Assembly: GCA_965222075.1 (NCBI GenBank)
Contig: OZ244937.1
Coordinates: 2,208,001 to 2,272,000 of the forward strand
Reading direction: 5' to 3'
DNA length: 64,000 bases
DNA from: Candidatus Latescibacterota bacterium
GTDB lineage: Bacteria; Latescibacterota; UBA2968; GCA-2709665
The notes beneath the pieces are model-generated. The model was not told the origin of the DNA. It saw only the letters and a list, made by a program, of their open reading frames with translations, and searched no databases. The translations under genes and the position numbers were made by a program. This document shows, in pieces, positions 8,433 to 49,421 of this stretch. Each line of letters opens with the position of its first letter. Within the stretch, counting starts at the first letter, position 1.

Positions 8433-8867
8433 TCAGGCAAAATCGATCGGCTCGGGACTCTGGCTTTGATGCGGATGCTCGGCCCCCACATAGATCCGGA
8501 CCTTCTTCATCATCTTGCGGCCCAGCCTGTTGCGCGGAAGCATGCCTTTAATAGCGTGTTCTAATACAAACTCGGGCTGGGTCTCAAGTAACCTTTTGAG
8601 GCTTTTGGTCTTGAGCCCCCCCGGATATCCGCTGTAGCTCGTGTAAACCTTATCCTCGGGTTTGTTGTTGCCCGTAACACGGATTTTACCGGCGTTGACG
8701 ATCACCACGTGATCGCCGGTATCGATATGGGGGGTATAAATCGGTTTGTGTTTCCCTCTGAGTATCCTGGCCACTTCGCTTGCAAACCGCCCCAGCACCT
8801 TCCCTTTTGCATCGGCCACGTACCATTTTCGTTCCACGTCGCTCGCTTTGGCGCTCATCGTCTTCAT
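8433..8867 (-). CDS. rplM: 50S ribosomal protein L13
   Basis: [37 protein letters not shown]. Confidence 0.99.
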
Positions 8868-8952
8868 ATCCAGACGGCGTCATCCATGGGAAATGCCGCC
8901 CTTATGTCACCTCCTCTCTCACTCAGCTGTAAATTTAGGTGTTAAGCTTCAA

Positions 8953-8980
8953 AAGATATATATCAACATTTTTTTGTCAA
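8953..8980 (-). promoter_or_regulatory. Candidate rplM operon promoter
   Basis: TTGACA-16 bp-TATCTT in an AT-rich tract. Confidence 0.6.
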
Positions 8981-9014
8981 GGAATAATCCGGCCGGAACA
9001 GCGCCTCTGGAGAC

Positions 9015-9272
9015 AAAAAAGCGCCACACGACGGGAGACCGGTTGCCCGATCACATCTCCGTGCGGCGCAATACGTTCGACAGCCTCCATCTCACGGAAC
9101 CTCAAACTGCTGATGGCCCGCCGAGATGACGAATTGCGTGTCGTTCGGTGACTGTTTAGATTCGCCAGGTGCGCTACCGATCGAGATGTAGATCCCGCTC
9201 CTGGCGAGCGCATCTAACTACAGCCACCTCCACTGGTCGTATCGCTCATTAGACCACCTCCTTTCTGTGTAA
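9015..9272 (-). ncRNA. Candidate structured small RNA or micro-ORF transcript of unknown family
   Basis: Has its own promoter (9278-9306), AGAAAGGAGGTG at 9255-9266, long hairpins at 9147-9228, 9067-9138 and 9021-9069, and a T6 tail at 9015-9020. Confidence 0.6.
9214..9249 (-). CDS. 11-aa micro-ORF MSDTTSGGGCS
   Basis: ATG lies 5 nt after an extended SD and the ORF ends in TAG. Translation is not demonstrated. Confidence 0.4.
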   Translation of the reverse strand: MSDTTSGGGCS

Positions 9273-9277
9273 TCGAA

Positions 9278-9306
9278 AATATAGGGTATCCCCAGGAGGA
9301 AGTCAA
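9278..9306 (-). promoter_or_regulatory. Sigma70-type promoter for the 9015-9272 unit
   Basis: TTGACT-17 bp-TATATT. Confidence 0.75.
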
Positions 9307-9376
9307 TCGCTTTTTCTCCATCGCCCGGCACCCCCCACCCCTCCCGGCACCGCCAAAGTTCAAGTCGGAACTTTTT

Positions 9377-10252
9377 TTATGTCCGTGGATCCAGCACATC
9401 CCTCAGCCCGTCGCCCAAGAGGTTAAACGCCAGAACGGTCAGAAAGATGGCAAGGCCGGGAAAGGTCAGCACCCAGGGGGCGCTCAGAATCAACTCCCGT
9501 CCCTCGTTCAGCATGGCGCCCCACTCCGGGGTTGGCGGCTGCGCTCCCAGGCCCAGAAAGCTGAGACCTGCGGCATCTAAGATAGCGGTGGCCAGTCCAA
9601 GCGTCGACTGGACAATCAGGGGGGGCAGACAGTTGGGAAGCACAGCGAACACGAGAACCCGCAGGTCTCCCGCCCCAAGGGCCCGAACCGCCTGCACATA
9701 GTCCTTCTCCCGCACCGAAAGGGCCGAGGCACGCACCAGCCGGGCATACTGGGGCACCGCCACAATCCCCACGGCCAGCATGGCATTGTCCAGGCCTGGG
9801 CCCAGAACGGCCACAATCCCGATTGCCAAGAGGATGCTTGGAAAGGCCAGCATCAGATCCATAGCCCGCATCAGCGCCTGATCCAGCAGGCCGCCCCAGT
9901 ACCCCCCCGTAAGCCCGATGGCCGTCCCCAGAATCAGGGCGATCAGCACCGCGACCACTCCGATCCGCAACGAGATCCGGGACCCGAAAATCACCCGGCT
10001 CAGAATATCCCGGCCAAAATCGTCCGTGCCGAAGGGGTGTGTCGGAGACGGTGGAGAAAGCCGGCTGTAGAGATCCTGTTCCAGCGGATCATAGGGCGCA
10101 GCCAGCGGCGCGGCAAGGGCCAGCAGCAAGAACCCCAGCAGCAGCACACCGCCCGCCACAGCAAGGCGGTTTACCCCCAGCCGCCGCCACAGCATCCCCC
10201 CCCACCCTTCCGACTGGCCTATTTGTGAAACATCAGTCGTTGGTACTATCAT
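9377..10252 (-). CDS. dppC: Dipeptide/oligopeptide ABC permease (DppC/OppC)
   Basis: HPFGTDDFGRDILSRVIFGSRISL, LSFLGLGAQPPTPEWG, GDGLRDVLDP. The start is uncertain and could extend to 10273. Confidence 0.9.
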   Translation of the reverse strand: MIVPTTDVSQIGQSEGWGGMLWRRLGVNRLAVAGGVLLLGFLLLALAAPLAAPYDPLEQDLYSRLSPPSPTHPFGTDDFGRDILSRVIFGSRISLRIGVVAVLIALILGTAIGLTGGYWGGLLDQALMRAMDLMLAFPSILLAIGIVAVLGPGLDNAMLAVGIVAVPQYARLVRASALSVREKDYVQAVRALGAGDLRVLVFAVLPNCLPPLIVQSTLGLATAILDAAGLSFLGLGAQPPTPEWGAMLNEGRELILSAPWVLTFPGLAIFLTVLAFNLLGDGLRDVLDPRT

Positions 10253-10355
10253 ATACAGGCTTCTCCACACCACCCCCGGTTACAGGTCCCGGTCCCCTGT
10301 TCCTCCCCATCCTTTTTTGCCTCTGCCTTTAACCTGAAACGTGGAATCTGGAACT

Positions 10356-49259: not shown

Positions 49260-49277
49260 GAATATCACCTGACAAGA

Positions 49278-49358
49278 CCAACCGGCGCAACTGGCGGATA
49301 ACGTGGGAGCGACCACGGGGGAGCGTCGACCGATACGGAGAGCCGACCGCCTGGGCAA
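49278..49358 (+). promoter_or_regulatory. ZMP/ZTP (pfl) riboswitch
   Basis: GCAACTGGCG..GTGG-loop-CCAC-GGGGGAG ... GCCGACCGCCTGGGCA matches the ZTP aptamer consensus and lies in the folD leader. Confidence 0.88.
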
Positions 49359-49421
49359 AACAGAAAACCCGGGCGGTTTTTCGTCCGGGGCGGAATCTCC
49401 AAAGCGCAGGAGGGCGACCCG

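Follow-up and report, generated by a model that had tools for sequence, protein, structure and literature searches.

A structured small RNA with an extended Shine-Dalgarno sequence and a conserved short reading frame upstream of rplM in a Latescibacterota genome: an apparent divergent relative of Ms_IGR-5

Results

Anatomy of the transcription unit

We analysed a stretch of 64,000 nucleotides from a Candidatus Latescibacterota genome (contig OZ244937.1, positions 2,208,001 to 2,272,000; hereafter the window), and this report concerns a small RNA of about 256 nt that is encoded on its minus strand between an ABC permease gene (9377-10273) and rplM (8433-8867). Sequence comparison with related genomes, with Rfam and with metagenome contigs indicates that the RNA belongs to a divergent, non-actinobacterial branch of the Ms_IGR-5 superfamily (RF02471), and that in its 5' module, which carries a very strong Shine-Dalgarno (SD) sequence and a mini-open reading frame (mini-ORF), selection keeps the frame and the RNA motif but not the encoded peptide.

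The transcription unit lies within the 510-nt gap between the two flanking genes. The genes on its 5' side encode two oligopeptide-type ABC permeases, and those on its 3' side were identified by Pfam as the ribosomal proteins L13, S9 and S2, the elongation factor EF-Ts and the ribosome recycling factor (RRF), in agreement with the rplM-rpsI-rpsB-tsf-frr operon that a preliminary description of this DNA had assigned from the sequence alone. The same description had placed a promoter, AGAAAGGAGGTG, an ATG with its ORF, a second motif GGAGGTGG, three hairpins and a T6 run, and all of these positions proved to be correct. The parts of the unit, together with the promoter-like site of rplM, are as follows.

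9278-9306, minus strand: sigma-70-type promoter-like site, with the -35 box TTGACT at 9306-9301, a 17-nt spacer and the -10 box TATATT at 9283-9278 (10 of 12 matches).
9015-9270, minus strand: small RNA of about 256 nt, with A9270 as the likely 5' end and the 3' end in the U-tract at 9020-9015.
9252-9266, minus strand: SD1, the extended SD sequence AGAAAGGAGGUGGUC, invariant in 35 of 35 sequences.
9234-9256, minus strand: hairpin P0, in which UGGUC (9256-9252) pairs with GACCA (9238-9234) around a 13-nt loop that contains the start codon.
9214-9249, minus strand: mini-ORF of 11 codons (MSDTTSGGGCS), with ATG at 9249, 5 nt past AGAAAGGAGGTG, and TAG at 9216-9214.
9224-9231, minus strand: SD2, the second SD-like motif GGAGGUGG (GGAGGTGG), inside the mini-ORF, whose 3' part is the 5' strand of P1.
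9147-9228, minus strand: hairpin P1, closed by GGUGGCUGU/ACAGUCACC, with the stop codon in its lower part.
9067-9138, minus strand: hairpin 2, long and irregular, with compensatory changes in 11 of 16 pairs (helices 5 and 6).
9015-9069, minus strand: terminator hairpin GCGCCGCACG/CGUGUGGCGC followed by U6, with compensatory changes in 9 of 13 pairs (helices 7 and 8).
8953-8980, minus strand: promoter-like site of rplM (TTGACA-16-TATCTT), separate from the RNA.

The sequence ACACAG starts seven bases past the -10 box and is followed by AGAAAGGAGGTG at 9266-9255. The 16S rRNA gene of this genome, of which a single one was detected, ends in GGAUCACCUCCUUUCUA; because of this tail the complementarity of SD1 to the host's own 16S rRNA, put at 12 nt in the preliminary description, extends to 15 nt (AGAAAGGAGGUGGUC, with one G-U pair). 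The stop codon of the mini-ORF lies 8 nt past the core of SD2, GGAGGUG. The apical loop of P1 carries a conserved motif, CAUCUC, at 9188-9183, and the hairpin of the terminator, which spans about 9069-9021 and is followed by T6 at 9020-9015, includes an SD-like GGAGAUG at 9060-9054. All three hairpins were present in the minimum free energy (MFE) fold, which reached -107.2 kcal/mol compared with -89.9 +/- 4.9 for 200 dinucleotide shuffles (z = -3.5), none of which was as low.

Conservation and covariation within the order

Of 61 related genomes searched by blastn with positions 9000-9320, 52 had a match to the element. Matches were found in 20 of 21 genomes of family f1 and in 31 of 31 of family f2, which are both families of the window's order, and in 0 of 5 and 0 of 3 genomes of f3 and f4, two other families of the class (8 genomes). 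The window's own genome carries a single copy. An alignment of 20 sequences showed no variation in the SD, in the ATG(A) or in the second GGAGGTGG, and the same was true of the -35 core TTGACTT, of much of the -10 box and of most of P1 (hairpin 1).

For the whole RNA, RNAalifold gave 56 pairs from an alignment of 35 sequences, all of which have a U-rich tail, and 97.3% of the cells were paired. Compensatory double changes were detected in 22 of these pairs, compared with 14.8 +/- 1.5 in column shuffles (0 of 500 reached 22), and in slid controls, in which the partners were moved by 1-3 columns, at most 8 pairs showed compensatory changes. The changes were concentrated in hairpin 2 and the terminator hairpin. 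P0 was paired in 100% of the cells and showed only one-sided G-C to G-U changes, and P1 was mostly invariant, with pair 49:132 switching from G-C to A-U in 4 sequences; since both helices are nearly invariant in the order, their pairing is supported by conservation and by these few G-C/G-U/A-U exchanges. The matches in 52 of the 61 relatives and the covariation support for the fold argue that the element is more than a product of chance, and they agree with the expectation of the preliminary description that a genuine unit would show covariation and a conserved SD-ATG arrangement in related genomes.

A pairing between the apical CAUCUC of P1 and the GGAGAUG of the terminator hairpin was considered and rejected: 96.8% of its cells were paired, it showed 0 compensatory changes, and 95 of 500 shuffles scored as high. 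One relative (L031) lacks both segments.

In one genome of the order (G038, locus L034, about 643-2115) the RNA gene is interrupted by a 416-amino-acid (aa) transposase ORF of the Mutator family (PF00872, 3e-61), which leaves the two halves about 1.4 kb apart.

Relation to Rfam Ms_IGR-5

No Rfam family reached its gathering score at the locus. The preliminary description had recognized no hallmarks of transfer-messenger RNA (tmRNA), 6S RNA, signal recognition particle (SRP) RNA, RNase P or a riboswitch, and indeed none of these was matched in 8700-9500 even at E values up to 10. When the threshold was relaxed, however, Ms_IGR-5 (RF02471, "Actinobacteria sRNA") aligned with 9126-9270 at 23.5 bits (E = 0.003 in a region of 801 nt), compared with a gathering score of 45 bits. 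Weak matches to BLV_package (E = 2.4) and ncS54 (E = 4.3) were treated as chance.

Used against the whole genome of 5.36 Mb, the RF02471 model matched this locus only (E = 0.005). It also matched the same locus in 20 of 21 f1 genomes and 30 of 31 f2 genomes (50 of 52 in the order), with scores of 23-46.6 bits; the gathering score was reached in one of the 61 related genomes (G050, 46.6 bits), and most genomes of genus g6 scored 38-41 bits. The elements shared with the model occur in the same order: an ACAC 5' end, the extended SD, a small hairpin, GAGGUGGCUG, TAG, GCGC...GCGC, CUGGCGAAU and the closing CAGUCACC. Both also have a long hairpin in which CAG(Y)CACC is the closing sequence and CUGGCGAAU stands on the 3' side, and both are built as a 5' module followed by P1, another long hairpin and a hairpin at the end.

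To follow the family outside the order, metagenome contigs were searched with a pattern that required the second SD-like motif at a distance of 8-38 nt from the first SD. At least 119 metagenome elements with the same 5' module were found, and among the 80 of these that were analysed nearly all had the same layout; many of the 80 contigs were apparently derived from soil. The elements range from classical Ms_IGR-5 to forms without an Rfam match. Thus, when 17 diverse loci carrying the 5' module were compared with RF02471, six scored at or above the gathering score (51-195 bits), three fell below it (31-34 bits) and eight gave no match at E <= 0.01. Conversely, a model built from the 5' domain of the window's order only (R1) matched 24 of the 80 metagenome loci (E <= 0.01), including the classical members L098, L126, L112, L074 and L113, the last of which is a classical Ms_IGR-5 according to Rfam (195 bits). 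The window's order is therefore continuous with accepted members through intermediates, and since Rfam recognizes only some of the 17 loci, the curated RF02471 covers only part of a continuum, at whose edge the window's order lies.

The RNA also differs from Ms_IGR-5 in several respects. In the window's order the stop codon lies 14 nt, not 15 nt, past the start of the SD2 motif, so that the motif is read in another frame; the helix that encloses SD1 has 3 bp rather than 4-6 bp; and the RNA of the window has a clear U-tract terminator. The family title does not fit the host either. WhiB (PF02467) had no match in the host genome, which is 97.6% complete, whereas the Corynebacterium control matched, and neither LpxC nor Spo0A was found in the host genome. 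The lack of WhiB, LpxC and Spo0A suggests that the host is probably neither an actinobacterium nor a diderm bearing lipopolysaccharide nor a spore-forming firmicute. Our reading of these comparisons is that the RNA represents a divergent, non-actinobacterial branch of the Ms_IGR-5 superfamily. The preliminary description had called the RNA unannotated and had named a strong match to a known Rfam family as evidence against its proposal. The first statement holds insofar as the window copy scores below the RF02471 threshold, but the apparent kinship with Ms_IGR-5 goes part of the way towards such a match.

The published record of the family is in good agreement with an independent RNA. Two reports describe Ms_IGR-5 as a small RNA validated by RNA sequencing in S. 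lividans (PMC8079986) and as a defined small RNA transcription unit in S. avermitilis (PMC8780764). In the accessible portions of the literature that names Ms_IGR-5 or RF02471, leaving aside the discovery paper and all supplements, no mini-ORF, twin-SD layout, function or member outside the Actinobacteria is described.

Within a sample of the phylum, R1 matched 51 of 151 genomes. Apart from the window's own genome, the matched genomes were 17 of 18 in f1 and 30 of 30 in f2, which together make 47 of the order's 48 other members; the remaining three belong to two further families and gave matches that were weak, shorter or altered. The phylogenetic range beyond this sample is inferred from metagenome contigs.

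Several divergent elements deserve separate mention. Two genomes of f4 carry a mini-version of about 78 nt (G056, L060 1542-1619, minus strand; G054, L062 132-208, plus strand) with the same 5' SD and the start codon in a hairpin loop; its second SD is fully paired by a CCCACCUC strand, and its 10-codon peptide is unrelated. A gene for a RIO-domain kinase (PF01163, 1e-34) begins about 100 nt downstream of the copy in G056. A relative of 144 nt in another class of the phylum (G064, L061 1539-1682, plus strand) has a 5-bp outer helix, GCACA/UGUGC, and a cysteine-rich frame of 15 codons opened by TTG, and stands alone between divergent and convergent genes. On one contig (L067) an Ms_IGR-5-like element (775-932, 31.5 bits) is directly followed by a flavin mononucleotide (FMN) riboswitch (984-1132, 101.6 bits), both on the plus strand. 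The 17-nt 5' motif was also present on two viral contigs, neither of which has the P1 hairpin; in one of them (L063, 11072-11131, minus strand) a 25-nt 5' module consisting of ACAC, the extended SD and ATGA scored 17.8 bits with R1 and lacked P1, and this match is probably an ordinary gene start.

The 5' module and the mini-ORF

The segment upstream of SD1 can pair with the segment just before SD2 across the family, forming a helix that we call Pa. Runs of at least 4 pairs were found in 46 of 56 distinct segment pairs, compared with 41% of 2000 random re-pairings, and the sequences that form the helix are diverse (CACA/UGUG, CGCG/CGCG, GCAG/CUGC, CCAA/UUGG, CGGG/CCCG, CCGA/UCGG, CACUG/CAGUG and others). 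Given this pairing, SD1 would form a bulge of about 10 nt flanked by Pa and P0, with the start codon in the loop of P0.

The mini-ORF is intact, with 11 codons, in 35 of 35 relatives of the order. Among 74 distinct metagenome sequences, a stop codon lies exactly 15 nt past the start of the SD2 motif in 71 (59 TAG, 6 TAA and 6 TGA), and in 69 the first start-like codon 4-14 nt past the SD1 core opens an uninterrupted frame to that stop, giving ORFs of 11-16 codons. The distance between SD1 and SD2 varies from 29 to 47 nt in the same sequences and covers every class modulo 3; nevertheless, ATG, GTG or TTG codons were found in frame with the stop in 58 cases, as opposed to 11 and 3 in the other two frames. 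In the window's order, 14 nt separate the motif start from the stop, and the segment preceding the motif is shorter, with 19 nt in the window compared with 21 nt in a metagenome example (L066). Because this segment is 2 nt shorter, the ORF survives in another frame (GGA GGU GGC UGU AGU UAG versus GAG GUG GCU ... UAG). The spacing of 8-9 nt between the SD-like core and the stop may be one that allows the anti-SD of a ribosome positioned on the last codons to pair with the motif.

The preliminary description had proposed a micropeptide unit, in which MSDTTSGGGCS would be the functional molecule and the RNA structure would serve its expression or stability only. A strong SD, invariant start and stop codons and a frame intact in 35 of 35 relatives are what a peptide gene should have. 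The codons themselves argue otherwise. Codons 2-4 are free in the order (S/I/T/N, D/E/K/I and T/M/E/K/S/L/Q), whereas codons 5-11 are frozen at all three positions, and since the third positions are also frozen, the constraint on codons 5-11 is at the RNA level. Moreover, most of the metagenome relatives read the motif in another frame (...EVAxx*), and distant relatives within the phylum encode unrelated peptides. We conclude from the wide differences among the peptides, and from the free and frozen codons, that selection keeps the ORF and the RNA motif rather than the peptide, and a functional micropeptide is the least credible of the explanations considered here.

A second, coupled ORF starting at the ATG or GTG directly after the stop was rejected. 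In the window this is a 78-aa ORF (8977-9213, minus strand) that overlaps the whole RNA, and it is considered spurious because the equivalent frame varies in length from 7 to 97 codons in 35 relatives.

Genomic context

The usual gene order in genomes of the order is the permease gene, the RNA and rplM. Of 36 loci searched with tblastn, 30 had rplM downstream, within about 150-250 nt, and the upstream permease is missing from several genomes in genus g6. This linkage, and the succession of a leader peptide and a terminator in a classical attenuator layout, would suit a cis-acting leader of the rplM-rpsI-rpsB-tsf-frr operon, in which read-through of the terminator at 9069-9015 is set either by ribosomes translating the mini-ORF or by L13 or S9 binding to the RNA. 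A tuning of read-through into the operon was one function put forward in the preliminary description. The RNA is, however, kept where rplM is not. Four genomes of genera g8 and g9 (G051, G042, G037 and G038) retain the RNA and have, in place of rplM downstream, the gene for an unrelated protein of about 400 aa without a Pfam family, and neither an L13 gene nor a matching permease gene was found near any of the 80 metagenome loci. The next downstream ORF, called with a crude ORF caller, was convergent in 11 of 21 loci and began 146-408 nt after the RNA start. Ten neighbour proteins from six loci fell into eight unrelated Pfam families or none, and no conserved neighbours were found across the family. 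In addition, rplM in the window has its own promoter-like site just past the terminator, and in family f2 a TTGACA occurs within about 20 nt after the terminator; no Rfam match to the L13 leader or another ribosomal-protein leader was obtained at E values up to 10, and no antiterminator pairing was found in constraint folds. The context thus largely refutes a cis-acting leader, which we regard as very improbable. Because its neighbours are not conserved, the RNA is better described as a free-standing gene whose adjacency to rplM is an accident of lineage; the rplM linkage is lineage-specific.

Two other features of the window were observed. A 7-codon upstream ORF (8864-8887, minus strand; ATG at 8887) ends in a TGA that overlaps the ATG of rplM (8867) as ATGA, and a strong SD-like sequence, GAGGAGGTGA, lies about 19 nt before its ATG; this arrangement may make the ORF a leader that is translationally coupled to the L13 gene. 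A ZMP/ZTP riboswitch (RF01750) at 49277-49363 on the plus strand scored 59 bits against a gathering score of 39 and is the only gathering-level Rfam match within the window.

Evidence of expression

Near-identical sequence is present in public RNA libraries, and the contigs of four runs were mapped on 8800-9450. In two metatranscriptome runs of one study (X1 and X2), one contig each covered the body of the RNA (9065-9228 and 9057-9228) with a mean word depth of 52 and 50, while the contigs over the start of rplM from the same study had depths of 4 and 5, so that the RNA was about 10 times deeper. A contig of a second study (run X4, the RNA nature of which was guessed) spans 9065-9270 and begins at the predicted transcription start. 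Runs X6, X7 and X8 had small shares; X7, the one of these that was mapped, contained a relative with 90-95% identity to 9118-9239, from which we draw nothing about habitat. We place no weight on the parts left uncovered: all four runs lack 8954-9056, and X1 and X2 also lack 9229-9270. These contigs hint at transcription of the RNA, and at a higher abundance than that of the adjacent mRNA, without proving either. Together with its own promoter-like site and terminator, and its retention with or without rplM, they agree with the proposal in the preliminary description of an independently expressed small RNA.

Discussion

The explanation that we favour, and to which we give somewhat better than even chances, is that the RNA is a ribosome-engaged regulatory RNA, in which translation of the mini-ORF gates or protects a structured body with a function in trans. 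According to this explanation, a ribosome would bind SD1, only a few bases from the 5' end, and would translate the mini-ORF from the start codon displayed in the loop of P0. Its passage would melt P0 and the base of P1, and at termination its anti-SD could re-pair with SD2. The selected feature would be ribosome binding and translation and not the peptide. Ribosome occupancy may thereby protect the 5' end of an abundant RNA and gate the conformation or accessibility of the body, that is, of the P1 apical loop, hairpin 2 and the terminator hairpin, which would be the carrier of the trans-acting function. The evidence of ribosome occupancy comes from mycobacteria: ribosome footprints on Ms_IGR-5 homologues in M. 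abscessus and M. smegmatis are described in one report (PMC4974804). Protection by the SD has a precedent as well, since strong SD sequences can protect transcripts from decay, also without translation, according to another (PMC7856553).

The latter observation also bears on a different explanation, namely that a structured RNA acts through a protein partner or base-pairing alone and that the SD and ORF are incidental or form an untranslated 5' stabilizer that binds the 30S subunit. The strong covariation in the body and the conserved single-stranded motifs would be expected of such an RNA, and stabilization mediated by an SD without translation is documented, as just cited. A stabilizer would not, however, require a frame from start to stop that is kept through all modulo-3 length classes, nor would it account for the interchange of TAG, TAA and TGA at the stop, and the ribosome footprints reported on family members (PMC4974804) also speak for engagement in translation. 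We consider this explanation decidedly unlikely.

A decoy for ribosomes or 30S subunits, raised in the preliminary description as a way to sequester 30S subunits or sense ribosome availability, was weighed on the same evidence. Here SD1, and after termination SD2, would titrate small subunits or anti-SD tails, so that the RNA serves as a sponge or as a sensor of availability, and the ORF would merely let bound ribosomes leave without ploughing through the RNA. The 15-nt complementarity to the host's own 16S tail, the constant spacing between the second SD-like motif and the stop, the high contig depth in RNA libraries and the lack of conservation of the peptide are all consistent with a decoy. 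To matter, though, such an RNA would need roughly the abundance of ribosomes; the long conserved body, including hairpin 2 and the P1 loop, would be left unexplained; and the gene is disrupted by the transposase ORF in G038. A decoy is, in our judgement, unlikely.

Several observations weigh against the translation-gated RNA that we favour. Contigs are unreliable guides to transcript ends, strand and true level, and their depth does not measure abundance well. The metagenome search pattern demanded both SD motifs and the members found are interrelated, so that the ORF statistics overstate their independence. In the order, P0 and P1 have 3 compensatory pairs compared with 2.6 in shuffles, and Pa has only 3 bp (CAC/GUG). 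When seven members were folded with a ribosome-sized stretch at the stop kept single-stranded, no consistent alternative pairing was found. Because the transposase ORF splits the gene, the RNA is dispensable in G038, and the accessible parts of the literature found give no target or phenotype for any family member.

Comparison with known systems helps to define what is unusual in this arrangement. In the 5' SD-type stabilizers of Gram-positive bacteria, a ribosome or 30S subunit near the 5' end blocks decay. The RNA resembles them as an abundant transcript whose very strong SD is only a few nucleotides removed from the 5' end, but it also conserves a start and an in-frame stop, and it leads no protein gene. 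In dual-function small RNAs such as SgrS/SgrT, RNAIII/hld and SR1/SR1P the peptide is conserved and functional; these are likewise free-standing structured small RNAs with a short frame, whereas the peptide here is not conserved. With attenuators and the L13 leader the RNA shares a short ORF followed by a terminator hairpin and, in this lineage, a position upstream of rplM, but it has no constant downstream gene, rplM has its own promoter-like site, and no Rfam leader matches. At the programmed frameshift site of release factor 2 (RF2), an SD-like element inside the frame precedes a stop codon by a few bases, and the SD-like motif here also stands at a fixed short distance upstream of the stop, within reach of the anti-SD; unlike the RF2 site, the RNA shows no sign of frameshifting, and there is no conservation of the frame that follows the stop, which has 7-97 codons.

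A broader idea, which we offer tentatively and hold to be doubtful, is that Ms_IGR-5 and its relatives constitute a cross-phylum class of ribosome-engaging RNAs that would hold or meter ribosomes and in this way sense or govern the free capacity of ribosomes or release factors. With the SD in a bulge, the start codon in a loop and mostly TAG, a stop read by RF1 only, at the point where the terminating anti-SD could re-pair, the body might relay the state of the ribosome to targets.

The family extends beyond the reach of the curated model and apparently beyond the Actinobacteria, and it is common in metagenomes, with at least 119 elements. Its most conserved part is a ribosome-loading module and not a typical base-pairing seed, and selection keeps an ORF without its peptide, in which the spacing between the stop and the SD-like motif inside the frame is fixed. 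These results correct the tempting view of the element as a regulator of the adjoining ribosomal-protein operon and provide a testable entry to the possibility that the ribosome itself might serve as the ligand of a free-standing RNA.

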